Positions 24-61,968 are shown, counted from the stretch's first letter. The stretch is 63,154 nt of DNA from Stramenopiles sp. TOSAG23-2 (GCA_900128395.1 LT649247.1:1-63154), one strand, 5' to 3'. Notes: a model not told the origin generated them from the sequence alone. Numbers and translations: made by a program.

Positions 24-1850
24 ATGATCTTTTTCTTTGGTGGTTTTGGTGTAATCTTATCGTTGTATATATATAGTATAAATAATTTTTCAAAGACTGT
101 ATTTGTAAAATTGACGAAGGATACAGACATATTGATAAATATTGTATGTTTGACTGTGTTACTTTTACTCGAATTTTCAAACATATTTAAAAGCTTAAGT
201 TTCATGGTTGCAACTATTACTATAATGTTTCAAGATGTTTTTGAACTTAAGAATCATAAAATTGTGATATTGTCTTTAGTATTCTTTGCTGTGATAATGA
301 TTGCACGGATTTTAGTGTTAATATACCAAAACAATCATGAGTTTGATATCATTTTATTTCAATTCAACGAAACCAATAGTTTGAAGCTGGGATCGATGAA
401 AATTGCAATCTTTTTTATGCTGTTTTTCGTTCATATACAAACATTAATGAACGCAATTAACGATCCATCGGAAAAGAAATTGTATGTTATTACTTTTCCT
501 ATGTTAATCATAATATCTGCATAAATTTGTTTTAATGCTATAAATTGCAAAATTTTCTAACATATTACAAACTTTATTTTTGTTATAAACAGATTATTCT
601 TATTTGGAGTTGTTCATAAACCAAAAGTATCGATAGAAGAAACATTTGCAATACGGAGAAAAATGTATTCATATGGTACGATAATTGTCGCATTTATATT
701 GTTGTTAATGTTCGTCATAAGTGGTTTTTTTGAACCTGATCTTATTACTCAATTTCTGTGGTACAAAGTATTGTTTTATTTATTTGCTTTCGCTTTATTA
801 ATTTTCTTGATTCCCCTTTTTAATAAAAATATAAATACACAGAATATGAAACGAAATTTTAAAGAGCCGTATGTTTGGATTGTTGGATTGTTACAAATTA
901 TGTATACAACAGTCGACATTATGCAGGCGATTTTAAGTCATGGAAACCTTTTTATAGTAGAATGGTTTCTGTTTGTTTTGCTGACAGCTAGCCTCATTGC
1001 AATAGACTCACTTACATATCGATATCGTGGGTTGCAACTAGGAGCGTTTGTCGTTTACATAATAAATTGTATCAATTTAATAACTAAATGGACATTTAGA
1101 GATGCCAGTACGAGATTTATATTTGGTGAAAATGGAAATATGTCAGACCAAGAATTAAAACGATCGATAATGATGAATATGTTATCTGTAATGATACCAG
1201 CATTTAAACGTGCCTTATTTGATAAAGATAATAAATGTTTAGCTTTTTCTGTATCACCTATTTTTCGCTTGACTGGAACAACAGATGTTGAATGGTTTGA
1301 TCAGAATTATTACATGCGAAAAAGAGAGTCTACGGCATCAAGAAATGTAAGACTTACTACAGAAGCCGCTGAAGAAAGAACTCTGTCTCAAAGAAACCGT
1401 GAAAGTATAATAGTGAAATCATTATCCATTTTCTTCGAAGATAATTTACTTACTACAGAAGCCGCTGAAGAAAGAACTCTGTCTCAAAGAAACCGTGAAA
1501 GTATAATAGTGAAATCATTATCCATTTTCTTCGAAGATAATTTGGACGAAGTTGAGAAAGCGAAACATAGCACTAAAAGTGACAAAAAAAAAAATCGTAA
1601 GCAGAAAGGTAAAAAAAGTAACAATAAAAAGGAAATTGGACAAAGAGGTTCTATATTTGTCAATGTTAAAACGTTTCACAATGATGGTAGTAACGAAGTA
1701 TCAATGACAGAAAAGGAAATGGTGCGCGTAGAAATATCACAGGAAGCTGATATCATAGAGCAACACGAAGAAGATAATGCTATTAATACAGATGCAAAAG
1801 AGGATGAAGCAAAAAAAGAATTGGATGACTATTTAGATCTATGGAGTTAA
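24..1850 (+). CDS. Multi-pass membrane protein of unknown function; 2 exons (<=24..481, 593..1850), probably 5'-partial
   Basis: ORFs 24..524 and 663..1850 join in frame through a GTATGT...TTCTAAC...AAACAG intron at 482..592 (KKL|LFLFGVVHKPK). Many hydrophobic segments and a charged C-terminal tail. Confidence 0.7.
482..592 (+). other. Spliceosomal intron (GT-AG, 111 bp)
   Basis: GTATGT donor, TTCTAAC branch-like motif, CAG acceptor; removal restores the frame. Confidence 0.75.
1352..1543. repeat. Exact 96-bp tandem duplication inside the CDS (32 aa repeated in frame)
   Basis: 1352..1447 = 1448..1543; LTTEAAEERTLSQRNRESIIVKSLSIFFEDNL occurs twice. Confidence 0.9.
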
Positions 1851-3014: not shown

Positions 3015-4271
3015 ATGTCTAATAAAACAAGTCCAAAAAGGACAGCAGCTGGTAGAAAAACTGCAGGTGCTGTATCCAAATTGGAGGTAAAAAAGAAAAA
3101 AAATATAGTTGTAGAAGAAAAAGATGATGATTTAGCAGTAAAACCAGTAAATCCATATATTGATTTTATATTGGGTTTAACATTTATCTTATTATGCATT
3201 TATTTAGTGCTTACGTTAAGTAATAAATCCACTTATTACATGCTTGGTTTTTTCATGATTTCGTTGGTAGTTGTTGCATTTGGTAAGTAAATTCTATCCC
3301 CCTGAAACCTGATAAAAAAGACACCCTTCTCTAACACATCACGCATAATATTCATATACGCTACGCTCCATATAGGCACTAATTTAGTTGCATATGTATC
3401 AAAATATGTTGCATTATTTATATCAAGTTGTCGAACTGGGAAAAATATTCCACAGGATTGTAGAAATCCCATGAAATCAAAATTAGCATTGAGGAAATTT
3501 TCTGATCAAGCTTGGCAATTAACGATTCATACAACCATGACATTGTTTGAGGTATATCTATTATTTGTTGTTGTAGATGAAGATAACAATACATCATCAA
3601 AATGGTGGACCAATCCAGAAACATGTTTTCAACCATGTGCCATCGAATTTGCTGAAGGACGAAAAAGAAGGCCTATGGTTTTGAATCAATTTTATTTGTT
3701 TCAATTGGCAATATGGGTTTATACAGGGTTTTCATGCAAATGGGTAGAAGCTAGACGAAAAGATTACCTTGAAATGATGACACATCATGTTGTTACAATT
3801 ATGTTAGTATTATTTTCATTTGCAAATGAAAATCAACCTATTGGGTTAGTGATTTTATTTGTTCATGATTTCAGCGACATATTTTTAGATTTAATGAAAA
3901 TGTGTAATTATATGAAACTTGAAGGGACACATGGTATGTTTATAGTAGAAGCTGTATTTGCATTGAATACATTTATCACATGGCCATATTTACGACTTTA
4001 TTATTTTCCAATACGTGTCATATATAATGGTGCAATGAAAGGTTATATCAATAATTGTGGCGGTGGTGATGAAACAAATAATTTATCGCTTCAATTAAAA
4101 TTATGCCAAGATTTAAGCTTTTGTTTCAGTGGAAATATACTTTTATGTATATTAGCAAGTTTACATTTTTTTTGGTATTATTTAATGCTTCGTATATTGT
4201 ATAAATTAGTTACTGGTAAAAGCAAACCAAATCGTGCAGGGAAAGAAGTATATGAAGGCGAATCTGATTGA
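3015..4271 (+). CDS. Ceramide synthase (LAG1/LASS, TLC domain); exons 3015..3282 and 3376..4271
   Basis: Lag1p motif RKDYLEMMTHH...LFVHDFSDIFLDLMK and acidic C-terminus; intron 3283..3375 joins ORFs 3015 and 3471 in frame. Confidence 0.9.
3283..3375 (+). other. Spliceosomal intron (GT-AG, 93 bp), putative introner-like copy 1
   Basis: GTAAGT donor, TCTCTAAC branch motif, TAG acceptor, phase 1 in a Gly codon; shares blocks with intron 61219..61304. Confidence 0.85.
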
Positions 4272-7077: not shown

Positions 7078-8279
7078 CTACAATCTACTTGAGTTTGTAT
7101 TTGCATTGGAATTATGAATTGCTTCAATAACTTTTTGATTATATAATGTATCAGCAAAACTACATGCATCATCCAACGCACGTTTATTTCCACCTTCAAG
7201 ATATTCTTTAATTTGAAGAGCAATGTTAAATGTCCCTAATGCAGGTGCACCGCCATGATTTCCAGCAGCTTTACGCAAATCTTCTGGTAATCTACCATCT
7301 TTTCTCTCCAATACTACTTTACCTTTTGCGTTATAAAGTACAAATGAATTGCCACTTAATTTAGCGGAACCTTTTGTTCCATTGAAATATGTTGCACCGC
7401 CGCCTTGGCCAGTCATTACACCAGTGATACTTAACGTACCCAATGCTCCACCATCGCAACGGAATTGTGCAGCAACATATTCCTCTGCAGTGCATGGCAC
7501 CATTTTGTTTTCGTCCTCCTTTGTTTTCCAATCTTTTGGATGCATTCTTTTTTCTTTCACAAAGGTTTCTGTCATAGCATTTACGTGCGTAATTTTTTGC
7601 CCAGTAATATAGTGCAACTGATCTATGGAGTGTACACCAGCAGCACCAAGGATACCACCTCCCTTTTCTTTTTCATTCCACCAAACATGATTCCGACCAA
7701 AGGAACCAAAATTCATCATTTGTTGCATATCAAAATGTCTTAATTCACCAATTGCCCCATCAATCAAAATTGCTTGACGTGCTGCTTGAACAGCTGGCGT
7801 GAACCGCATCTCATGGTCAATAATAGCAAATTGATTTGGACGTTTTGATGCTTCATCAAACATCTCTTGGACTTCTGGTACATTTGCTCCACCAGGTTTA
7901 TCCGATAATACGTGTCATGGTCAATAATAGCAAATTGATTTGGACGTTTTGATGCTTCATCAAACATCTCTTGGACTTCTGGTACATTTGCTCCACCAGG
8001 TTTATCCGATAATACGTGCTTGCCAGCGCGTAATGCAGTCAACGCATGTTGTGCGTGCAAATATGTTGGCGATGTAACGGATACAACATCAACCTCTGGG
8101 CAATTACATAGCTCCTCGACAGAATCAAAGGCATATTTCACATTTAGTTTATCACACAATTTTTGTGCTTTTTCTTTTTTCCTTGAATAAATTGCTACTA
8201 CTTCTAGACCTGCTGCCCGGAAGATTGGCGTTTGTACTTTTCCACCCCAATTAGTCCCGATAATTCCAACTTTTACCAT
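7078..8279 (-). CDS. Gfo/Idh/MocA family NAD(P)-dependent oxidoreductase, frameshifted by a 104-bp duplication; C-terminal SRL
   Basis: VGIIGTNWGG Rossmann motif, GKHVLSDKP, GGGILGAAGVHSID; ORFs 7764..8279 and 7078..7863 join when one duplicate copy is removed. Confidence 0.85.
7811..8018. repeat. Exact 104-bp tandem duplication causing a frameshift
   Basis: 7811..7914 = 7915..8018. Confidence 0.9.
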
Positions 8280-30737: not shown

Positions 30738-31139
30738 CTAAGTCGCTTTGTACAAAAGAATTGCATTCTTACCACTATAGAAAAAAAGAAACGTTTTTGC
30801 TTCGTGTGTAACAAACGCTTTAAAGTTACCACCAACAACACAGTGCCACGTTGGGCCATGTTTATCATCAAAGTACAATTTTATTTCTTTAGATATAGCT
30901 GATTCATCACCATCACATTTTTGCGTTGCCTGGGCTGCTACTGTTTCAGCTTCACTGATCATACCACTATGCTCATCCTGTAATATACGGGTGTAAATAT
31001 GAAAATGGGAAATGTTAGTTGTTAATAATAAGTTAAGTTTACATTGTTTGGCAGTGTGAAATATATATATGTAGGATTAATTGTGTATACATACCATATC
31101 AGTGACGCGCTTTTGATTTCCCGAAGTACCTGCTGACAT
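30738..31139 (-). CDS. Dynein light chain type 1 (LC8 family); exons 31139..31095 and 30977..30738
   Basis: FDDKHGPTWHCVVGGNF...VTHE...LLYK; phase-0 GTATGT..CAG intron 30978..31094 gives N-terminus MSAGTSGNQKRVTDM|DEHSGM. Confidence 0.9.
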
Positions 31140-39202: not shown

Positions 39203-39228
39203 GTGTGTGTGTGTGTGTGTGTGTGTGT
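39203..39228. repeat. (GT)n microsatellite just upstream of the helicase ATG
   Basis: gtgtgt... run. Confidence 0.9.
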
Positions 39229-39780
39229 ATGTATTGTTATTATTTGATTTCCGTATGTTTCTATTTCTTTCTAACGAGATGTTGTGTCATTATTTTTTAT
39301 TTATTTAGTATATGATTTACTTTTACTCTCTTCTCCACTAACTGTTGTCATTATTTTTTATTTTTTTTTATGAGATGATGTATCATTTTTTTGATCTCAT
39401 CTTGTGGGAGGTCATTTGCTTCCCCACAATGAGGGCCGATCGATATTGTGGTCTGGGGCCATAGACACAGCATCGGACTATATATAGCATATACACAGCA
39501 TTGGGATACCCGTCTGAGAGTAATTAGTGCAATAGTATACTGTATCAGTCAGACACACAGGCAGCACACAGTATGAGACTAAAAAATTACAAAAAATATA
39601 TAATAATGCACTTATATATGCATATATATTAATGCTAAATATAACTAAATAGAGATAATAATGTTGAACAAGAAACAAGTATATATAGTGGAGAGAGCAC
39701 GGATAGGATTACTAAGCATAAAAAACTTACTGTTTACAAAACGTAAACAAAAAGAATAGCAAAATAAGTATAAAAGGAGG

Positions 39781-46833: not shown

Positions 46834-48352
46834 TTATATTGCTGCAAAACGATCTATTGTTGTCACCATTTCTACATCAAAAATTCCTCTTTCGTCTTCT
46901 TCCTCTACCTGTTCATTATCATTATCGTCGTCTATATCATCATCATCATCATCATCATCAAAACTATTTACTTGTTCATATTTCTGAGATTTCAATATTG
47001 TATTATTATTATTATTTTGATGATTACGTTTAAATTTTGCAAAAAGTAAAATACCACAAAATACTAAAAGCAAACCAAAAATATTTGTAATTGATAATTT
47101 CTCATCGTAAACAATTACAGCCATACCAATTAAAAGAATATCTTTGACTTTTGCAATTACATCTGTTGTTAAAGCAGATGTATGGTGTATTAATTTGAAT
47201 TCTACTATTAATAATAATAACGCAAATAATCCGCCACACATGGAAACAATAATAAATTCTTCAAGAAATTGAGAGGCTAATGATGGGTTGTTCAAACTGT
47301 TGTAATAATTTACAAATCTATCTTTTTCTACATATAATGAAGCTATAAATGTAAATATCGTAGCACTTGGTGATAAAAATAAAACTAAATTCACAACTGA
47401 TATTTTTTCAATTTGCAATGCATATTGTGTCAAAGTCCATCGCATTGCACCAAAAACAACAGCAAGAAATGCAAACAACATACAAATGATATTGAATTCT
47501 GGGTTACTCCACAACGCCAATACAGCACCAATTGCTATTAAAAATATGTATATACCTAATTGTGCTTTACATGGTTGAAGCTTTGAACAAATACCAAATA
47601 ATAACGTTAGTAATATTCCACAATTTTTCACAACAGTTACAATGGATATCTGTCCATATGTTACAGCTAAATTTGTAAATCCAATATCAGCCTTTTAATT
47701 ATTTATATAAATATATATATATATGATGAATGAATGAATAATATATATAATATATATATATATATATAATATTATAGTACAGTATGTTTCTTATTAGTAA
47801 ATCTCTTGTATTGGTAGTAATATAGATAATAGTATTAATAATAATGTAACTTACACCCGTAAAAATGCCAATTGGTACAATATATAATGATAATACTTTT
47901 AATGATGGAAAGACAATTTCAAATGTGTTGTTATTATTATCTACAGCTCTATTATTTGAACGAATACATTTAGAAATTGATACAATAATAAGCAAAAAAA
48001 ATCCTTTCAAAAACATATGACAGGACGATAATAATAATGGAAAATTTAATTTTGTTTTGCTAAATACTAATTTATTATACAAACCAAAACAAATAGATAT
48101 AGCATACCACGATACTGTATATGTTAAAATTTCAAAATAGATCACATATTTTCTAGTAAAATGAGAATCATGAAAACATGATTTCAATATTAAGACAATT
48201 AAATAAAAAGTAAGTGCAACTCCAAGTAAAGCACCACCAAATTCACTAATTTCTAAAAACATAGTTAAAACATTATTATTATTATTATTATCATCAATTG
48301 TTTTTGTTACATTATTATTATTATCATTATTTCTTATTAATTTTCTATACAT
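46834..48352 (-). CDS. TPT/SLC35C2-like nucleotide-sugar transporter; exons 48352..47855 and 47691..46834
   Basis: YNKLVF...NFPLLLSSCHM; splicing at GTAAGT(47854)..AAG(47692) gives IGIFTG|ADIGFTNLA; MRWTLTQ and TSALT motifs. Confidence 0.85.
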
Positions 48353-50679: not shown

Positions 50680-53600
50680 TTACAACCGCCTCATCCTCTC
50701 TAGCCTCCTAGTGCATGCTACGCTATTTTGTTGAATTGTAGAGCATAATTTATCATCACTAAAATTATCACCAGTACAAGTTAAATGTTTAATAATGTTC
50801 TGTGCGATGTTCCAAACCGTATCTTGACCTGCGAAAAAAGCTTTTATCATAGGCTCAAATGGACCACCTTTAGAAACTAAACCTAATTGTGCCGCCAATG
50901 GACCACATTCTTTTAGTGCTCCTTTACAAGTTGATCTACAACTCTTGCGTTCTTTGCAGTCGATAGAGCATGATGGGAAAAATAAACTGCACATTTCTTT
51001 ATTTATTGACGGTATACATGTTTTTGGAATGCCTGGTAATAATTGTTGTACCATTGGAAGTGCTTGCTTGAATATCACATTAAATGCAGTTGCAACATCC
51101 TTTTGGTCCAAACCAAATGTGTTAGTACCACTAAATGTTTTCTCGCCACAACCTGCAAGTTTCGAAGCATCAATTTTGATACATTTTGAGCTCTCTTTTG
51201 CTGCCTTTTCTTTGGCTGCCTTTTCTTTGGCTGCCTTTTCTTTGGCTGCCTTTTCTTTGGCTGCCTTTACTTTGGCTGCCTTTTCTTTCTCTTCCTTTTC
51301 TTTTGCTGCCTTTTCTTTCTCTTCCTTTTCTTTCTCTTCCTTTTCTTTTGCTGCCTTCTCTTCCTTCTCTTTGTCTAACTCTTCCGCTTCATTATTAATA
51401 TCTTTTACAACGTCTTTCACTTTATCATCATTGCCACTCTCATCAGTTGTGCCAGAGCTAGCAGTTGTATCTAATGATTCACTTGCTCCAGTCGAAGCTT
51501 GTGGCTCTAATAATTGTTTTTTTATGCCTTTATCTTCCTCTACTTTTTCATCATGGGTTCCTGAGCCATCTATATCTACAGGATTTTTTATGTCTTTATC
51601 TTCCTCCTCCTCCTCCTCATTAGTCTCATCCGTGCTGCCACTACCAGTACTGTCACTACCAGTACTGCCACCGGTCGATGCTGGTGAAGAATCTACTTTT
51701 TCATCATGGGTTCCTGAGCCATCTATATCTACAGGATTTTTTATGTCTTTATCTTCCTCTTCCTCCTCATTAGTCTCTTTTGCTTCCTTCTCTTTTTTGG
51801 ATTTTTCAGCAATAGCTGCTTTTTTATCTTCTTCCATCTTCGTTTGTTTCTCCCTCTCTGCTACTTTTTTATCTTCTTCCATCTTCGTTTGTTTCTCCCT
51901 CTCTGCTACTTTTTTATCTTCTTCCATCTTCGTTTGTTTCTCCCTCTCTGCTACTTTTTTATCTTCTTCCATCTTCGTTTGTTTCTCCCTCTCTGCTACT
52001 TTTTCTTGAGCCTTCATCTCATGTGCATGTTTCTTAATGGTAGAAACATATCTTTGCATTGCTTCCATTGCAACATCTTCTGCCATTTTTGGCATTTTTT
52101 CTGGTGTACAATTTATTTTGTTTTCTGATAATAATGATGAGCATCCTTCTCTACTAGGATCATAAATGTCATCTGTGCATTGTTTTGAAATATTAAGAAC
52201 ACGTTGAAACAACGGCATGTTTTCACCCATAATACCTGTAACTATGGTGTTCAAAGCGCCACCGTTTCTAAATACGCTCAAAGAAATTGGTGTCAGAATA
52301 AGTTTGCACTCCTCTGCCGTTTCTTCACATGTACTTTTACATGGTGGCTGTGCTTCACATTTATCATTACAGCGTGGTAATAATGCGTTGCAAGTTGATT
52401 TTTGTAATAAACGTAAACATTTATCTGTCATTCGTTTGCCAAAAAATCGTTTTGTAGCTTGAAATGCTTTTTTCAATCTGTTGAAACCATCTGCAATTTT
52501 TTTGTGCGAATTGCTTAGTAAAGCTGATGTCGATGATGCCTCAAAAGATTTTGCATTACACATAGGCATGTTGTGGAAAGATTCGCATTTATTCGTTTTC
52601 AATTGGAGCAATTTAAATTTACCTGCAGCTTTTTTATCTGTAATAGATTTATATGTTTTTTCCAACTGTTCCTTGCTCAAAAGTTTTAACATTTCCGGCC
52701 CAGACGTTGTTCCCACGAGAGCTTTCACTACTTTTGAATCAAACAAGGCATACTTGGCATGTTTTGCTAATGTCTTTTGAAATTTAGATTTTAAACGTTC
52801 AAAATCATCTTCTTCTTGTTGCAATGCAATGGGTTGTAACAAATCTGAGGAAAAACCTTCCTCTAATAATCGCTTTCTTAACCTTTGGCTCGATTGGCAA
52901 GCTTCGATTAATTTGTATTGTGATTTTCGAGTTAACGATTGTTCGAAATAAAACAAAGTATTTCTATCCATTCTAAATACCATATGTTCAAACCGTTTAA
53001 TATTATCAGTCTCTTCATCCATTACTTCATTTGCTTTAATTACATCATGGATTAATTTTAGTGTTACTAATGCTAATTTCGGTTCTTGTTCTTTATTTGC
53101 TTCAATAAGTTTTGATTCTACATGCCTCATGGTATCTCGAACATATCCTCTGACAAATGGTCGTACATTTGATAGAATTTCTTTAATACGATCCCGTTTT
53201 TCATAATCACTCCATCTATTGATAACAATTGCTGCACTTTCCGCAGTCTTATGATTAAGCGCTTTCCATTGTTTCAATATTTTGCCTTCTTCATGCGTAG
53301 TTCTTTCTGGAACTAAACCTGCTGATGTATTCTTAAAAACAATTGGACCGTCATATACAATTTCTCCCGTAGTTGTTGCATCCTTGTCCTCTCCATCTGT
53401 TTCTATACCATCATCATCGCATGATCCTCCTTTGATCCACAAATTTGACCATTTCACTTGGATTTTTTTCCCTTCATGATACATTCCTCGTTTGAAAACT
53501 CCATATTTTCTCTCATCCTCCGTGCAACCGGTGCAATCTGGGAAATGACCTAATGCGCCTAAAAGACCATCTGCTCCACTGCAATGTTCATAACTACTCC

Positions 53601-56600
53601 AAGCGAAAAATACGTTTTTTGTACCAACTTTTGTTGGATAAAATGCACCTTGATTCGCACATTTATGATGCCCTGCTTCTGCAGAGAAGCCCGGCCCTTT
53701 TGTGTTTCCGAGCCACAATCTTAACTTTGCATTAGACCCATTCGTCGCTGTTACGCTGCTAGGAGTACCTGCAAATGTGTCTTGATCCCATGTATATGTC
53801 CTATGGAGAGTCTCCTTTTGGCCTTCGAGTTTAATTTGTTCCAGTATTTCTGCACCTTTTAAATTTTTGAAATTCATAAAATTTGGGTTTATGCATGATG
53901 TTTTATCAAATGGCGAACAAAATGGCATAATGTAGCGATCTCCACTTTCATCGCCTTTTACAAATTTTTCCATTTCAAATCTGGTCCCAACATTATGCGC
54001 AAGTAAATGGTAACCATATTGGTCGAGGTAGGATTCACATTTTTTACCAATCATATTAAAAGTGTGTGTATATCCGTTACCGGTCGCATCAGCTCCAGAT
54101 AAAGCTTTCTTGATCGCATCCGGGTCGCACATAGCACCAGTGTATTTTGGACTTAAACAAAACTCGTCAGAAGTTAAATGCTCCGATTCGCAAGTGTTTA
54201 ATTTACTTAACCATGCATCCATAACTTTTATTGTCGCGGAATTTTCTCCACCTGCTTGCATTGAAACCATTGAGCGATATGCACCACCTGGAAGAATCAT
54301 ATTTAATTGGCTACGAAATGCATCTGGGATACAATCACTCTTCAAATCTCCGCATGCCGATTTACACTGTTTCATTGGTTGGCATTTATCATCGCAACGT
54401 GGTAAAAGTTGTTGCATCATATCCGTTTTGTAGTCATTTTTGCATTTTTTAATAGTTGCAACAGTATCTGCTGGGAAAATACCAAAGTTACTGACCATAT
54501 CAAGTAACAAGATGATCTGGTTTGATCCATCAATCACTTCTTTCGCTGTAAATCCATCTGCGATGGTACCATAAAATTCATTGCCATTTAATCCTACCAC
54601 TTTTTTGCATCCTTCCATGAAAGGATTGCCCGTTCCAGTTTCATCTTCTTGTTCCTCTGGTCCTGTTGACTCCGATTCGTTATCAGTCGGTTCTTCTGGT
54701 ACATCTTCTGATCCAGTTTCATCTTCTTGTTCCTCTGGTCCTGTTGACTCCGATTCGTTATCAGTCGGTTCTTCTGGTACATCTTCTGATCCAGTTTCAT
54801 CTTCTTGTTCCTCTGGTCCTGTTGACTCCGATTCGTTATCAGTCGGTTCTTCTGGTACATCTTCTGATCCAGTTTCATCTTCTTGTTCCTCTGGTCCTGT
54901 TGACTCCGATTCGTTATCAGTCGGTTCTTCTGGTACATCTTCTGATCCAGTTTCACCATCTGATCCAGTTTCACCATCTGATCCAGTTTCACCATCTGAT
55001 CCAGATTCACCATCTGATCCAGATTCACCATCTGATCCAATAGCGCCACCAGTGGTTGATCCTGTTTCAGATGGTGATGCACCACCTACAACATCTTCAT
55101 CAACACCTGTCATATCCGTCTCACTGCCCGTACTGCCCGTATTGCCAGTAGGAGCCTCTTCCGTTTCACTTGGAACACCGATATCAACTTGTACGACATC
55201 CATATTATCGTCTCTTCTATATGGAACATCCATGTCGCAACCTGCCATGCATGGTTTTTCATCTTGCACACCATGTGGGCATTTATCTGTCAAGTCACTA
55301 CACTTTTGACACATATCATATTTAAAACCTTTCACCTCCAATGAGCAACCGTTTTGCTTACCATCGCAATAGTTCGCTTTGCAGTCTTTCTTACTCAGGC
55401 CTGAATCTCTCATCCTTATCATACATGCTTGTGCACAGGATAATAATTGATTACTTCCAGTCTTATAATCGTTGCAACAGAAACTTTTACTTTGGCAATA
55501 ATCGTAACACATTTCAGCATCGGTTTTATTTGCTTTGACAATTTGTTTGATTACATCATCAGTATTAGTTCTATTATTATTATTATTATTATTCGTATTA
55601 TATGAAAGAGTTTCTTCTTTATCGTCATCGTATAAAAATCTATTTTCTTCACGTATCTTATCACTAATATGTTTTTTAATAATCGTGGCCAGTTCAAGAC
55701 TGTATTTATTGTTTCCCATAGCTAATTGCTCTAGTTGAAATCTTAACACTCTTTCTTTGTATTTTGGCAGCGATATTTGAAACGATAGTCTCATACCTTC
55801 TGGGTCATTACATTTACCAGACACGCCAAGGAATCCCATATGATTTCTATCAATATTGAAATGCGATACGTAAAAATCAAGTAGTTTAGTAAACACTGAG
55901 ATAAGATCGGATCTTGTAATAGCATCGATACGTTCTGCATGGAATACTAGTTCTTGCTTTATTGTAGATTTAACTTGCCACGTAGGTGGCTCTTGTATAT
56001 GCTGTTGCCTGTGAAGGGTTAAATATTGCCTTACTAAACGGCTACCCATACCGGCACGTGATATCCAAGAAAATTGTGCATATTCATTGCCTTTCTTATC
56101 GACACGACCTTCAGATATTTCTTTTTGCGCCTTTAAAATATCATCAACACTAACATCTTTCTTGTCTTCAACTAAGGATGGCACAGGCTTGTGTTTGCTG
56201 CACCAAGTGCTGCACTTTGCTTCTAAATCTTCTTTTGTTTCTAACTCTGGTATTGGCTTACTAGTAAAAATTGGTTCTTCTGCTACTTCTAATAATGCAG
56301 CGTTATTTTTGCTATCACAATAATCGGTGCATTCTTTTTCCAAATTTTCAACTGGTAAATCGATTGGCGGTGTATTTGCTATTACGGTTGTAGCACTAGT
56401 TGCTGCACCGGTGGCTGTGCCAGTTGCTGATACGGCAGGTGCATCTGCAGGATTACATGGTGCACCTGTGTACTTTGCACTCAAGCATACTTTTGCATCT
56501 GTTACATATTCAGAGTTGCATTTATCCAATTTTTCTAACCATGCATCAATCACTTTCATAAATGGATCGCTTTCGCTCAATCCAATCATTGGAAGCATAC

Positions 56601-57231
56601 CACGCATACTACCACCTTTCTTTACCATTGGGAAATATGCTTGTAACGATGCTGATATACATTTTGATTTAAGTGCTTCACAACTAGTTTTACATTGTTT
56701 CATAACTTGACATTTCTCATCACATCGTGGTAATAGCTGTTCTATAATATCTTGTTTGTAATCATTGCCACAACGTTTTACCTGTGCACCAACCGTTGCA
56801 CCTAACAATCCACTAGCCATACCAAGTAAACTTATCAATTTATCAGCACCTTCTACAACTTGTTTGCTTGTAAATCCAGATGCAATAGTGCCATAAAATA
56901 CTTTCCCATTAACTGTAATCTCTTTACAATCTCTTGATGGCGTATTTGGTTTAGCAGCTTGCCTTTCCTTTTCAGCCTCTGCTATTTTTTGCAGCTCAAT
57001 CTTCTCTGCTAATACATTTTTCTTTGTCTCCAATTTCAAAAGATTTGCATTACCTTGTTCTACTGCATCTATCGTATGTCGGATCTTTTCTTTCACGGTT
57101 TCATGCTCTACAAATAGATCACGTACAGGTTTATTGCTTCTAATATTTCCACCATGAACTAAACTACCAATATAAACAAGAGCAAATAAAAGAAAAACGA
57201 ATAACCTCATTGATTTATGTAAATAATTCAT
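50680..57231 (-). CDS. Very large secreted protein with four Frizzled-CRD-like Cys-rich domains and acidic/charged tandem repeats
   Basis: Signal peptide; repeated LLPRC..KC...QCK..C...K..C and CSLFFPSC...CRSTC patterns; 26-aa acidic repeat x4, 15-aa repeat x4, KAAKE repeats. Confidence 0.75.
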   Translation of the reverse strand: MNYLHKSMRLFVFLLFALVYIGSLVHGGNIRSNKPVRDLFVEHETVKEKIRHTIDAVEQGNANLLKLETKKNVLAEKIELQKIAEAEKERQAAKPNTPSRDCKEITVNGKVFYGTIASGFTSKQVVEGADKLISLLGMASGLLGATVGAQVKRCGNDYKQDIIEQLLPRCDEKCQVMKQCKTSCEALKSKCISASLQAYFPMVKKGGSMRGMLPMIGLSESDPFMKVIDAWLEKLDKCNSEYVTDAKVCLSAKYTGAPCNPADAPAVSATGTATGAATSATTVIANTPPIDLPVENLEKECTDYCDSKNNAALLEVAEEPIFTSKPIPELETKEDLEAKCSTWCSKHKPVPSLVEDKKDVSVDDILKAQKEISEGRVDKKGNEYAQFSWISRAGMGSRLVRQYLTLHRQQHIQEPPTWQVKSTIKQELVFHAERIDAITRSDLISVFTKLLDFYVSHFNIDRNHMGFLGVSGKCNDPEGMRLSFQISLPKYKERVLRFQLEQLAMGNNKYSLELATIIKKHISDKIREENRFLYDDDKEETLSYNTNNNNNNNRTNTDDVIKQIVKANKTDAEMCYDYCQSKSFCCNDYKTGSNQLLSCAQACMIRMRDSGLSKKDCKANYCDGKQNGCSLEVKGFKYDMCQKCSDLTDKCPHGVQDEKPCMAGCDMDVPYRRDDNMDVVQVDIGVPSETEEAPTGNTGSTGSETDMTGVDEDVVGGASPSETGSTTGGAIGSDGESGSDGESGSDGETGSDGETGSDGETGSEDVPEEPTDNESESTGPEEQEDETGSEDVPEEPTDNESESTGPEEQEDETGSEDVPEEPTDNESESTGPEEQEDETGSEDVPEEPTDNESESTGPEEQEDETGTGNPFMEGCKKVVGLNGNEFYGTIADGFTAKEVIDGSNQIILLLDMVSNFGIFPADTVATIKKCKNDYKTDMMQQLLPRCDDKCQPMKQCKSACGDLKSDCIPDAFRSQLNMILPGGAYRSMVSMQAGGENSATIKVMDAWLSKLNTCESEHLTSDEFCLSPKYTGAMCDPDAIKKALSGADATGNGYTHTFNMIGKKCESYLDQYGYHLLAHNVGTRFEMEKFVKGDESGDRYIMPFCSPFDKTSCINPNFMNFKNLKGAEILEQIKLEGQKETLHRTYTWDQDTFAGTPSSVTATNGSNAKLRLWLGNTKGPGFSAEAGHHKCANQGAFYPTKVGTKNVFFAWSSYEHCSGADGLLGALGHFPDCTGCTEDERKYGVFKRGMYHEGKKIQVKWSNLWIKGGSCDDDGIETDGEDKDATTTGEIVYDGPIVFKNTSAGLVPERTTHEEGKILKQWKALNHKTAESAAIVINRWSDYEKRDRIKEILSNVRPFVRGYVRDTMRHVESKLIEANKEQEPKLALVTLKLIHDVIKANEVMDEETDNIKRFEHMVFRMDRNTLFYFEQSLTRKSQYKLIEACQSSQRLRKRLLEEGFSSDLLQPIALQQEEDDFERLKSKFQKTLAKHAKYALFDSKVVKALVGTTSGPEMLKLLSKEQLEKTYKSITDKKAAGKFKLLQLKTNKCESFHNMPMCNAKSFEASSTSALLSNSHKKIADGFNRLKKAFQATKRFFGKRMTDKCLRLLQKSTCNALLPRCNDKCEAQPPCKSTCEETAEECKLILTPISLSVFRNGGALNTIVTGIMGENMPLFQRVLNISKQCTDDIYDPSREGCSSLLSENKINCTPEKMPKMAEDVAMEAMQRYVSTIKKHAHEMKAQEKVAEREKQTKMEEDKKVAEREKQTKMEEDKKVAEREKQTKMEEDKKVAEREKQTKMEEDKKAAIAEKSKKEKEAKETNEEEEEDKDIKNPVDIDGSGTHDEKVDSSPASTGGSTGSDSTGSGSTDETNEEEEEEDKDIKNPVDIDGSGTHDEKVEEDKGIKKQLLEPQASTGASESLDTTASSGTTDESGNDDKVKDVVKDINNEAEELDKEKEEKAAKEKEEKEKEEKEKAAKEKEEKEKAAKVKAAKEKAAKEKAAKEKAAKEKAAKESSKCIKIDASKLAGCGEKTFSGTNTFGLDQKDVATAFNVIFKQALPMVQQLLPGIPKTCIPSINKEMCSLFFPSCSIDCKERKSCRSTCKGALKECGPLAAQLGLVSKGGPFEPMIKAFFAGQDTVWNIAQNIIKHLTCTGDNFSDDKLCSTIQQNSVACTRRLERMRRL
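51820..52005. repeat. Coding tandem repeat, 45-bp unit x4 (KVAEREKQTKMEEDK)
   Basis: Visible in both DNA and protein. Confidence 0.9.
54633..55038. repeat. Coding tandem repeats: 78-bp unit x4 plus 18-bp unit x5
   Basis: ETGSEDVPEEPTDNESESTGPEEQED x4; GSDGE(S/T) x5. Confidence 0.9.
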
Positions 57232-57868
57232 TTTAATGAATACGTACTACTCTACTGAACACAAAGTTTATTGGGTGTAAATGTTATCTATAACTATAAA
57301 TAAATGATACTGTTCTACATGAACGATACATGGTATGTGACATAGTTATTTAGACATTATTCATTGTCATCTCTCGATCATCTCATTCCAGGCATTCCCC
57401 CTCCTTTTATAAAAAAAAAAAAATACATCATCAAAAAGGAAGAAACTCTGGATTCCATCTTACTATGGTTTTAGCATCGAATTAAATATTTTGATAAGCC
57501 TGCACCGTGTTGGCATACAGGTCCACACAGCTGGACGCTGGACGACACCTCTATAGCACTATACAGCTAGACCTATGTAAGTATAAGGCTGGAAGGCCAG
57601 CAGGCCTTATTATAGATCTAGCAGGCGAAGAGATGAGAACTCTGCGCTTGTGCCTTCTGCCTTCTGGCTTCTGGCCTTCCAGCCTATAGGTTTTCGAGTT
57701 TCGAGTTTCTTTTTCTTTTTCAAGCGATGCCAGAGATATTCTATAGGTTTTATTATTCTAATTATGCCTGGTGGTATTAGTACAGTATCAGTATATGGCC
57801 TCCTCCTACATTTTTTTTTTTTTAACATGGCAACATGGCCGTGCATCATTATTATATTTATCCTTATC

Positions 57869-58101: not shown

Positions 58102-58267
58102 CTCTGGCATTATTATTACCTGGTATATTATTAATATATGAAATTATTATCTATTATTATTTGAATGAACAAATATACGATATACATATACACTGATATA
58201 CATAGTATATATTTCGGTTCTGTGATTATACCACCTATCATCAATAAAAGATTGCACCACCACCACC

Positions 58268-60404
58268 ATGGGTAATTTGTGTGGATCCACTGCAAGTACG
58301 ACGACTAATGGTTCAACCACAGTATCTAGACAATCTACAGTTGATGTTGATAAAGAAATTTTTGGACAATTAATAGGTACGATACGTGATCAAAGATGGG
58401 AAGACAATTATAAAATTGTAAAAAAACTAGGTGCTGGTATAACCGGTGCCGTACATGTAGTCGAGCATAATAAAGAAAGGAAAGGACAAAAATACGCATT
58501 AAAAAGTGTGAATTTGAATAAATTAGACCCTGCGCAATTAAAAGAATTAAGGAACGAAGTTGCATTGTTGAAAAAATTAGACCATCCACATATTGTACGT
58601 TTATATGAATGTTACGAAACAGACAAATCAATGGATTTAATTTTGGAACTTATGGAAGGTGGTGACTTACATGATGCATATCATAAAAAGCCTAAAGAAT
58701 TCACCGAGGTAAAAGTATGCGAATTAATAAGACAACTTGTAAGTGCAGTTGCTTATTGTCATAGTTTAGGGATAACGCATCGTGATATCAAACCAGCAAA
58801 TATTTGCTTTAGTAAAGGAGATTTTGAAAATATTAAATTAATTGATTTTGGTATTGGCAAATTGATGGGTCATGGTCAAAACCGGGGTAGCTTTTGGGGG
58901 AAAAGGGAGAAGCAAACAATGTGTGGAACTGTTATATATGTTGCTCCGGAAGTATTTACTGCTAATTATGACAATCGTATTGATATTTGGGTAGGTACCT
59001 GCTACCTACCTGCCCAAGGTTGGCCGACATTCTTACCTGCAATTTTAACTGCATTCTTACCTACCTGCCCAAGGTTGGCCGACATTCTTACCTACAATTT
59101 TAACTGCAATTTTAACTCCATTCTTACATATATATTCAAGACATACTAACAAATTATTATACACTGCAGGCAATCGGCGTTTTGACTTATTTTTATCTAT
59201 GTGGCCGAACACCATTTCAAGGTCGATCGCAAAATGAAACAATTGATAATATTGAACGGCATAAAAAATTAATCTTTCGCGGTCAACGATGGCATAATAT
59301 ATCCAAAGAAGCAACAGAGTTTATTCAAAGCTTATTGACACCGAATCCAAAAAAAAGGTGAGTACCAAATTCCTGCCAAAATCCTGCACCGTGTTGGTGG
59401 AAGAAAATCCTGCACCGTGTTTGTGGAACGTAGTGCTGCACCATGTTGGTGGAAGAAAATCCTGCACCATGTTGGTGGAAGAAAATCCTGCACCATGTTG
59501 GTGGAAGAAAATCCTGCACCATGTTGGTGGAAGAATACGTTCCACAAACACGGTGCAGGATTTTCTTCCACCAACATGGTGCAGGATTTTCTTCCACCAA
59601 CACGGTGCAGGATTTTCACACGGTGCAGGATTTTCTTCCACAAACACGGTGCAGGATTTTCACACGGTGCAGGATTTTCACACGGTGCAGGATTTTCTAA
59701 CATGTGATACTTATAATTATTCACCAAAAAAAAAAAAAAAAAAAAGACCACAAGCGGAAGATGCTTTGCAACATCCATGGTTTACAAAATGGTTAAAGGA
59801 ACGTAAATCAGCTAGTAATAGGCTTATTGATAAGGATGACCATCTACCAATCCCTCCCGATGTTCTTCGTAATATTTCACAATATGCAAAATTTAGTCCT
59901 TTGAAAAAAATGGCATTGATGGCTGTCGCGCAAGATTTGAATGGCCCGCAATTGATTCAATTACAAGACACATTTGAGGAAATTGATACAAATAATCTTG
60001 GAACGATTGATCAAGAGGAAATGTTACAAGCATTGAATGGAATCATGTCGGAAGAAGATGCTAAAAATATATTCAAAGGGCTAGATTTTGATAAAACAGG
60101 TAAAATAAGATATGGTGAATTTTTAGCAGCTGCGATGGATACAAGTAAAGTAATGGAGAAAAATCAATTGCGCGTTGCATTTAATAAATTGGATAAGGAT
60201 AATTCAGGGAGTATAAGCGTACCGAATTTAATTCAAATTGCTGGTAAAGTTTATGGTGAAGATATTATCAAAGCAAATTTAAAAGAATTTGATATTAAAG
60301 AAAATGGTGTAATTGATTTTGAAGAATTTGTAGCGTTAATGGAACAGAAGAAAGGTGGTGTTGCTGCTGCATCATCAGTTGCAGGTGTTCAATTGGAAAT
60401 GTAA
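58268..60404 (+). CDS. CDPK: Calcium-dependent protein kinase; exons 58268..58990, 59170..59357 and 59747..60404
   Basis: MGNLCG acylation motif; HRDIKPAN, DFG and APE kinase motifs; splicing yields DIW|AIGVLTYFYLCGRTPF and KKR|PQAEDALQHPWF; junction region and four EF-hands. Confidence 0.92.
58991..59169 (+). other. CDPK intron 1 (GT-AG) containing a ~56-bp tandem duplication
   Basis: GTAGGT donor, TACTAAC branch, CAG acceptor; ctacctgcccaaggttggccgacattcttacct occurs twice. Confidence 0.85.
59358..59746 (+). other. CDPK intron 2 filled with inverted arrays of a 26-bp unit (foldback structure)
   Basis: GTGAGT donor, TTCTAAC branch, poly(A)-AG acceptor; AAAATCCTGCACC(A/G)TGTTGGTGGAAG units forward at ~59377-59533 and reverse at ~59536-59697. 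Confidence 0.85.
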
Positions 60405-60627: not shown

Positions 60628-61671
60628 TTACTTCTGCTTCTTGAAAAATTTCACGTAAGGATGATTGGATTCGCTTTTCTTCTCATATTTCCTTCGTTGT
60701 TTTCCAATGTGATCACTGATTTGTTCTAATATCGAAAAAAAGAAAAAGAAAAGAAATACATTTTGTGTTAGTGTCTTAGATTTGGAAATAATATTCATAA
60801 GAGATAGCTAGGCAAAACTTACTCATGGTACGTTCGCCGCCCAATCTGTCGTGAATTTTTCGATGTCTCTCATTGGACGATAAATTGCAATACTTGTTAA
60901 ATGTCTTTAAACACATTTGTCTGGATTTTTTGCTCCAACGACCGTCCTTTTTCTCCTTTTTTGCACGTTTTTGACGTTTTTCAGCACAATTTTTTTGACC
61001 TTTTTTAGCACGTTTTCTAGATACAAATTTCACAGTAGTATTTTTGATAGTCTTCTTTTCCATTTTTGAACGTTTGGAACGTTTAGGTGTTTTTAAATGG
61101 TCTTCCGCTTCTTTTTTCACCTCATCTGCAGTGTACATCACATTTTTACCTGGCATGTCGACTTCTCGAATTTCCATTTCCCAAATGGCAGGTGCTTCAA
61201 AATCTAATTTTGCTGCACCTGTGGAGCGTAGCGTATGAATGAGTGGTAAATAGTTAGAGATGATATTCTTCATTCAGTTTAGGAGAAGAATAGAATTTAC
61301 TTGCCACTTGCAAACAATGCTATTGGAATTTTTGGGATTTCAATATTTTCCTTGTATACATCATTTATTGGATCAACACCACGAACACTTTCAGTAACAT
61401 TTAAATTTGTGTTGACAGCATGTTCGTTGTTATTTAGAATTGCCCCTTCTAACATAAATGTATAGTCAAAAGAATCGTCATCATCATATCCAGGGCTAAC
61501 GTCGTTTGATGATACGTAAATCCAATTGTATGGAGGGTGTTCGGGGGGATATAAGTCACCGTCTTTATTAATTCTGGCGGTGCTGCATTCACCTTCCATC
61601 ATCAAGGTCGTTAATGTTTCCTTGGTATCATCATACATTTGCTCGCTTTCAATCAATGGTTGAGAAAACAT
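60628..61671 (-). CDS. Myb/SANT-like (SHAQKY-type) DNA-binding protein; exons 61671..61305, 61218..60823 and 60725..60628
   Basis: Two frame-restoring introns join ORFs 61297..61707 and 60776..61273 and add a last exon, giving DGRWSKKSRQMCL...IHDRLGGERTM|KQISDHIGKQRRK; basic NLS-like region. Confidence 0.7.
60726..60822 (-). other. Spliceosomal intron (GT-AG, 97 bp)
   Basis: GTAAGT donor, CACTAAC branch, pyrimidine tract, TAG acceptor; completes the Myb helix. Confidence 0.8.
61219..61304 (-). other. Spliceosomal intron with GC donor (GC-AG, 86 bp), putative introner-like copy 2
   Basis: GCAAGTAAATTCTAT...TCTCTAAC...ATACGCTACGCTCCACAG; phase 1 in a Gly codon; restores the frame. Confidence 0.75.
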
Positions 61672-61699
61672 TTTCTTTACTATATTTGTATATATGGAA

Positions 61700-61968
61700 T
61701 ATGACAAAAAATGTTGAATATATAACGTTATAATTAACAGCGATGATATATGTTATATATATAATATGACAAAAAATATTTAATATATAACGTTGTAATT
61801 AACGGTGACGATATATGATATATATGTAATATGACAAAAAAATATTTAATATATGACGTTGTAATTAATTGCGACGATATATGATCTTATATATATATGA
61901 TATATATGTAATATGACAAAAAATATTTAATATATGACGTTGTAATTAATTGCGACGATATATGATCT
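61700..61968. repeat. AT-rich tandem repeat, ~4 degenerate 60-80 bp units, upstream of the Myb-like gene
   Basis: atatgacaaaaaatatttaatatat.acgttgtaattaa...gacgatatatg recurs four times. Confidence 0.85.

Follow-up and report, generated by a model that had tools for sequence, protein, structure and literature searches.

Introduction

The origin of new spliceosomal introns is an old question. To our knowledge, no mechanism other than introners adds introns at the scale of a genome, and we know of no demonstration of the reverse-splicing (RNA) route that has been proposed for the fungal elements. Introners of the MITE type have a TSD and/or a TIR, and one of their two splice sites may come from the TSD.

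The survey of Gozashti et al. 2022 counts 548 introner families across 175 genomes, with an excess in aquatic protists. Median lengths are 30–654 nt, some of the families lack a TSD or TIR, and most introner families look DNA-based (PMC9860276). In a later survey of 1,093 families in 201 species, the mechanism is unknown for about 72% (PMC12130899). MITE-type introners generate introns on a genome scale in the marine picoeukaryotes Micromonas pusilla and Aureococcus anophagefferens (PMC9860276), and in a marine stramenopile, Parmales sp. 'scaly parma', a single family dominates whose insertion mechanism is unknown (PMC12130899). The introner-like elements (ILEs) of ascomycete Dothideomycetes each amount to an entire intron, lack both TSD and TIR, are strongly biased towards genes and decay, in sequence as in length, towards ordinary introns; ILEs are longer than regular introns and have a stable predicted structure, and reverse splicing has been proposed for them (PMC3609843, PMC4457414, PMC9860276).

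The family described here, two copies of which lie in a stretch of 63,154 nucleotides (the window, meaning throughout the whole stretch of DNA that was analysed), is very probably a real introner of this already established class, and would add a further example of intron gain. Like the introners of other marine protists (Micromonas, Aureococcus, Florenciella and Chrysochromulina, among others; PMC9860276, PMC12130899), it occurs in unrelated genes of an aquatic unicellular host with similarity bounded by the splice sites, and is gene-enriched, non-autonomous and short, its 79 nt falling within the range of 30–654 nt. However, a TSD or TIR is present in 78.5% of the non-ascomycete families with assessable ends (PMC9860276/PMC12130899), and neither is present here. 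Unlike the MITE-type introners, the family carries both splice sites on the element itself, with no duplication and no inverted repeat. In being a complete intron, confined to genes and free of TSD and TIR, it resembles the ILEs, whereas it is unstructured and no longer than the ordinary introns of the window (97–117 nt), and its host is a stramenopile-like protist rather than an ascomycete. By its description, the family of 'scaly parma' is also alike, being a single family of a marine stramenopile.

We found no literature linking introners to MAST-4, the group to which the host is probably close. The words 'MAST' and 'stramenopil' are missing from the main texts of both surveys (PMC9860276, PMC12130899), and the literature on MAST-4 introns, in the portions drawn on here, describes no intron family. 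Eukaryotic genomes from Tara Oceans, a set that includes MAST-4, were nevertheless part of the 2022 survey's material (PMC9860276 for the survey), and thus the present family may already stand in the survey supplements.

Two related introns in unrelated genes

The first of the two introns (intron A, 93 nt; 3283..3375, plus strand) lies in a ceramide-synthase gene, of which exon 1 (3015..3282, plus strand) extends from an ATG (MSNKTS...) to a split Gly codon, and exon 2 (3376..4271, plus strand) encodes the TLC domain (PF03798, E 9.4e-30). The second (intron B, 86 nt; 61219..61304, minus strand) has GC-AG ends and is intron 1 of a Myb-like gene. The open frame upstream of it (61305..61752, minus strand) contains exon 1, and exon 2 (60823..61218, minus strand) is bounded by intron B on one side and by an ordinary intron on the other. 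The later exons of this gene are Myb/SANT-like by eye; a Pfam search of the separate exon pieces returned zero matches. Against the family profile described below, introns A and B give E values of 1.7e-12 and 3.6e-14, respectively.

The earlier note had reported that the two introns share three blocks, and inspection of both stretches bears this out. The 5' block, comprising the donor and a family-specific extension, reads GTAAGTAAATTCTAT in intron A (3283..3297, plus strand) and GCAAGTAAATTCTAT in intron B (61290..61304, minus strand), the form common to both being G[T/C]AAGTAAATTCTAT. The branch block TCTCTAAC is located at 3328..3335 (plus strand) and 61253..61260 (minus strand). The 3' block, the 15-mer ATACGCTACGCTCCA, occupies 3356..3370 in intron A (plus strand), with the acceptor TAG five bases downstream, and 61222..61236 in intron B (minus strand), with the acceptor CAG directly after. 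Exact matches to this 15-mer in the window are limited to introns A and B, and with up to three mismatches it has three matches in the window against a shuffle mean of 0.44. The 5' 15-mer has two exact matches, its looser matches being at chance level (14 versus 11.7). Aligned over their full lengths, introns A and B agree in 66 of 96 columns (69% identity).

Both introns are in phase 1, and their excision leaves long open frames on either side, 304 and 893 nt for intron A and 448 and 440 nt for intron B. The spliced ceramide-synthase junction, VVVAF-G-TNLVAY, aligns without a gap to VVVAFGTRCVAF in a 79%-identical orthologue, and the junction proposed for this gene agrees with RNA: an oligo-dT RNA contig (run X15, 1262 nt) omits exactly the 93 bases of intron A, with GT..AG ends. 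Run X17, from the same study as X15, has the same 93-nt skip but only 26 nt on one side, and this short-sided joint, like the parts that RNA does not cover, is not counted as evidence. A DNA contig of run X1, the probable source run of the window, is colinear across intron A, and a contig of run X6, an RNA library from a different study, retains intron A unspliced, which could be DNA carry-over or pre-mRNA. Intron B is supported by its restored frame and by the family alignment.

A second contig of run X1 matches 56 nt of intron A (window 3287–3342) and then continues into unrelated flanks, with a 3' end of the family type. It is a third copy of the family in the source genome, at another locus, so that no more than three copies, this one and the two of the window, are tied to the window's own source.

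A family of introns in metagenome contigs

Public metagenome contigs were scanned for the branch motif CTAAC followed, after a gap of 10–40 nt, by the 15-mer, which yielded 84 contigs. Including the window, the 15-mer occurs 89 times; six occurrences were dropped, namely L049, L052 and L059 (no family features), L072 (truncated where its contig stops), and L041 together with L119 (unmatched by the donor rule). The remaining 83 introns represent 56 distinct flank contexts, or sites, the two of the window included. A family profile was then applied to the 449,699 bases of these loci and the window, and gives 112 matches at E ≤ 1, of which 23 are without the exact 15-mer; 97 near-full-length matches correspond to 69 distinct sites. 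In the 63-kb window, the profile matches only introns A and B at this threshold. The earlier note had held that many dispersed copies at lineage-specific positions would speak for a mobile intron family, and dispersed copies are indeed found, in unrelated genes, at 56 sites by pattern and 69 by profile. Similarity bounded, to within a few nucleotides, by both exon–intron borders, which is part of what defines an introner for Gozashti et al. 2022 (PMC9860276), is found at the 56 sites and, with the profile, at 69.

The family consensus is 79 nt long, and the members at the 56 sites align to it from the first base to the last. The similarity begins and ends at the splice sites, and the exons on either side have none. 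The consensus is poor in G (6 of 79 bases) and has all three splice signals built in, namely GTAAGT as donor, CTCTAAC as branch site and CAG as acceptor. Of the 56 sites, 47 have the donor GTAAGT and 48 the acceptor CAG. Counted over the columns not forced by the search pattern, identity to the consensus averages 85% (range 54–98%), with the best copies reaching 95–98%, and one natural copy (L081:1624-1702, minus strand) is a single base off the consensus.

Introns A and B thus very probably belong to an introner family, a set of short spliceosomal introns that has multiplied through insertion of its copies into the coding exons of many unrelated genes. The unit would be the whole intron and nothing else, bringing its own donor, branch site and acceptor to each new position, and the copies would have arisen by copy-and-insert, as the features of ends, variants and divergence described below together indicate.

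The contig L040 (5.6 kb) has four family introns at 350–2337, within a leucine-rich-repeat gene, and a fifth, weak match on the antisense strand at 4192–4252. Four to five copies on such a contig is a density far above that of the window (2 in 63 kb), and L040 alone reaches, for its organism, the threshold of at least four such introns per genome used by Gozashti et al. 2022.

In viral contigs, the 15-mer alone has 35 matches, with the branch motif upstream in none of the 35, and the 21-nt 5' block has no match in the viral collection; the viral sequences searched thus give no indication of the family. In prokaryote genomes (596 Gb), the full pattern has one weak match (L120:841-920), on a 4.3-kb contig of a bacterial MAG with 41% G+C, which scores 16.6 bits against the profile and has a weak family likeness (AATTCTATTCC, ACTAAC and the 15-mer). 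This locus may be a mis-binned eukaryotic relative or a chance match.

Coding context and phase

Of 68 evaluable sites, 61 regain the sense reading frame when the family intron is excised. The remaining seven are limited by a contig end or by short neighbouring exons; an additional site, for which no acceptor was found, was left out. Together with the junction of intron A, the one copy checked in RNA, the restored frames identify the family members as real spliceosomal introns. Among the 68 evaluable sites, none is clearly antisense or intergenic. Long open frames cover 69% of the window, so that random insertion, tolerated in non-coding DNA and in coding DNA in the sense orientation, would place about 47% of the copies in non-coding DNA (P(≤7 of 68) = 1e-10). 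The contigs that carry copies have 29–36% G+C, like the window. Prokaryote-style gene calls break at the intron (for example, the 266-aa call P0002), and the family profile improves gene models in such genomes.

The phases 0, 1 and 2 are represented by 18, 13 and 30 introns (p = 0.023). Since phase 1 is the rarest of the three, the suggestion of the earlier note that the element is perhaps target-preferring is not borne out in that form. The similar upstream exon context that it had seen in the two genes likewise fails to generalise to the flanks of the 56 sites, where, apart from a weak enrichment of G at positions −2, −1, +1 and +2, no base is conserved. G is present at −1 and at +1 in 20 of 56 sites each, against a background of 20% (p = 0.004 each, uncorrected).

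Ends of the element and mechanism of insertion

The absence of a TIR or TSD, which had been noticed in the two window copies, holds at the scale of the 56 sites. The boundary ambiguity is 0–1 nt at 44 of the 56, the longest k-mers shared by the two flanks are as expected from shuffled partners, and the adjacent 3-mers are equal (L[-3:]==R[:3]) at two sites only. As for a TIR, the inverted matches are short and locus-specific, and none is common to the three copies examined. The element also appears free of RNA structure: the near-consensus copy has an MFE of 0 kcal/mol (z +1.21), all 200 shuffles folding at least as well, and the folding z of the window copies is +1.34 and −1.37.

We lean towards a splicing-coupled RNA route, in which the excised intron would reverse-splice into a transcript and the product would be copied back into DNA. 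The lean follows from ends that coincide with the splice sites, from the lack of a TSD or TIR, and from the fact that no copy is found outside coding sequence. The last argument is weakened by the search pattern, which requires exact splice-related blocks and under-detects decayed non-coding copies. The RNA route is the best fit, though unproven, as it alone would explain element ends that equal the splice sites and leave no scar. It is argued from negative signatures only, and we put it a little short of an even chance. An element this small, with all three splice signals, scar-free and confined to coding sequence, is a clean candidate for such a route. Tentatively, the family could be a minimal, structure-free introner of 79 nt that spreads via the spliceosome, the first such family outside ascomycete fungi, although on balance we doubt that all of this description will hold.

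The same family could instead be a DNA-level, non-autonomous transposon without a TSD, of Helitron, Crypton, single-strand or other type, whose bias towards sense-coding positions would result from insertion preference and selection. We regard this as a serious possibility, if not the one we would expect. Most classifiable introners in the published surveys are DNA elements, and gene-biased insertion is common (161 of 175 genomes; PMC9860276), while about 72% of the published families are unclassified (PMC12130899). Orientation alone is uninformative on the mechanism, because antisense insertions into exons would be purged, and the weak G enrichment at −2 to +2 could reflect a target preference. 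On the other hand, the ends of the element coincide with the splice sites at all aligned sites, and there is no TSD, no TIR and no flanking dinucleotide like the A|T or TT|TC of Helitrons. In addition, no site is clearly non-coding, against the 47% expected under random tolerated insertion. Helitrons and single-strand elements usually end in a hairpin, and no hairpin is present here in RNA or DNA (MFE 0). If the RNA route is the true one, sites with and without the intron might be observed in public metagenomes and metatranscriptomes, which would put the long-proposed reverse splicing to the test.

Divergence among the copies

Groups of variants defined by the interior of the intron (ATCCTCTCTAAC, ACCCTCTAAC and CTGATA..GACACC) recur at unlinked loci, and intron A falls into the last of them. 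Identity to the near-consensus copy is 78% and 81% for the copies in the window, compared with 69% between these two. Being closer to the consensus than to one another, they have the star pattern expected under independent descent from sources within the family. With the best copies at 95–98% of the consensus, these values also fit the description of the element in the earlier note as older and diverging. The window copies would be older, partly decayed members that have kept their ends and the branch block.

Intron B has an orthologue at the same position in L075, a contig whose aligned pieces are 83–97% identical to the window. The two introns differ at 8 of 86 positions, all between positions 25 and 59, so that the first 24 and the last 27 nt are identical. 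Across the Myb-like gene, the window and L075 disagree at 4 of 62 four-fold sites and at 64 of 502 sites in codon positions 1–2. The confinement of the differences to the interior hints at constraint on the intron ends, with numbers too small for a claim. It is also what could be said for a reading of the shared sequence as a selected element, such as a regulator or small-RNA site, acquired or kept independently in many introns. We consider this very improbable, since the similarity is colinear over the full length and, with the star-like divergence and the variant groups, indicates common descent and not convergence. Moreover, the functions of the host genes are unrelated, the intron has no RNA structure, and constraint on the ends is expected from the splice signals anyway.

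Intron A likewise has an orthologue, in L066 (94% identical over 1674 nt), which differs in the intron by one substitution and two small indels. The flanks of overlapping contigs are 93–100% identical, and the contigs may come from several related populations. Wherever several contigs cover a site, each has the intron, and no empty-site allele occurs among them, a nearly blind comparison in that all of them were fetched for carrying the element. Sequence similarity alone suggests that mobility may have been recent.

The only length differences among overlapping contigs are internal to family introns. Between L060:4779-4928 and L071 on one side, and L101:120-203 and L104 on the other, the exons are 99–100% identical, and the introns differ by an insertion or replacement of about 66 nt inside the family intron; a similar internal length difference separates L055 from L097.

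Local hopping as a general rule was considered and rejected, as copies in the same contig group are no more alike than others. Same-group pairs (n = 17) have a mean identity of 0.749 versus 0.785 elsewhere, 4612 of 5000 permutations reach the observed value, and the nearest neighbour is a copy from the same region for 1 of 26 sites. The one exception is L114 (and likewise L063), where a single gene contains two family introns (L114:558-629 and L114:919-1005) at a distance of 360 nt. Each has the other as its nearest relative, and rare variants are common to both (extra T's after GTAAGT, GATAACC and CATGT). L114:558-629 is without the entire 3' 15-mer block, yet ends in ACAG. The pair hints at a copy made within one gene.

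Other introns of the window

Intron-poor eukaryotes often have strict, extended splice signals, and the blocks of introns A and B do take in the donor and the branch site as well as the stretch that precedes the acceptor. Were they no more than the extended ordinary consensus of an intron-poor organism, there would be no family. This is improbable in the extreme. At least five other introns of the window carry only GTAAGT/GTATGT, CTAAC and YAG and are without the family blocks. Three of these ordinary introns are seen in full, at 482–592 (plus strand), 30978–31094 (minus strand) and 60726–60822 (minus strand, the second intron of the Myb-like gene); one is placed by its acceptor side (ending at 59169, plus strand) and one by its donor side (starting near 47854, minus strand). 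The family share in the window is thus 2 of at least 7 introns, and the profile has no match in the window, at E ≤ 1, beyond these two. The statement that the blocks are distinct from ordinary splice consensus therefore stands. In addition, the similarity extends to the parts of the interior outside the splice signals, and there are variant groups. A crude predictor of frame-restoring introns, applied to the fetched loci and the window, proposes 60 introns of the family and 36 others; as it yields false positives and the loci are ascertained, these two counts give no family share.

Host genes and host organism

Flanking frames have a Pfam match in 41 of 53 cases, with 33 different best families, and the host products include a SET-domain protein, an acyl-CoA oxidase, ion channels and ABC transporters. 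Seven Pfam families host twice each (ACOX, FA_desaturase, Sulfatase, PhyH, MFS_1, adh_short and Ank), which is what could be said for tracing the likeness of the introns to paralogous or segmentally duplicated host genes, but this has a negligible chance of being right, as the similarity ends at the exon borders, the 56 flank contexts are unrelated, the best Pfam families number 33, and the hosts in the window itself are a TLC-domain enzyme and a Myb-like protein. The hosts are thus, apart from the few same-family pairs, not paralogues of one another.

The window is matched in marine metagenomes and metatranscriptomes of 12 studies. Its UCH37 protein is 61% identical to a protein labelled 'Stramenopile-MAST_4' by one source, and 73–80% identical to marine proteins, compared with 45–46% for oomycete proteins. 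Single-cell genomes of MAST-4A have 33.9% G+C and 0.56 introns per gene (PMC5269757). The host is an uncultured marine protist with AT-rich, gene-dense DNA, and from the UCH37 identities and these published values of G+C and intron density, our best guess is a MAST-4-like stramenopile. If so, it would rank with the most abundant of the uncultured bacterivores that live in the surface ocean. As this lineage of abundant, uncultured marine grazers is repeatedly sampled by metagenomics and metatranscriptomics, the gain, loss and splicing efficiency of the introns could be tracked in nature.

Other features of the window

At 7730–7960 (minus strand), a gene for a GFO/IDH/MocA oxidoreductase is split into two overlapping frames, and a stretch of about 46 nt (..EASKRPNQFAIIDH..) occurs twice, about 100 nt apart; the cause may be duplication of part of an exon, an intron that has gone unrecognised or an error of assembly. 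A single open frame of 2183 aa at 50683–57246 (minus strand) has an Fz domain near its C-terminal end, a G+C content of 37–39% versus about 30%, and a strong negative GC and AT skew. A calcium-dependent protein kinase at 58226–60401 (plus strand) is divided between two frames, kinase and EF-hand, with the acceptor at 59169 following CATACTAAC. The start of the EF-hand frame reads through repeated units (..TVQDFHTVQDF..), which suggests that further intronic or repeat sequence may be present there. Finally, a (GT)n microsatellite (39203–39228, plus strand) lies directly upstream of an intron-like stretch (39227–39308; GTATGT...TTTCTAAC...TTTAG), within the spacer that precedes an open frame at 39760.
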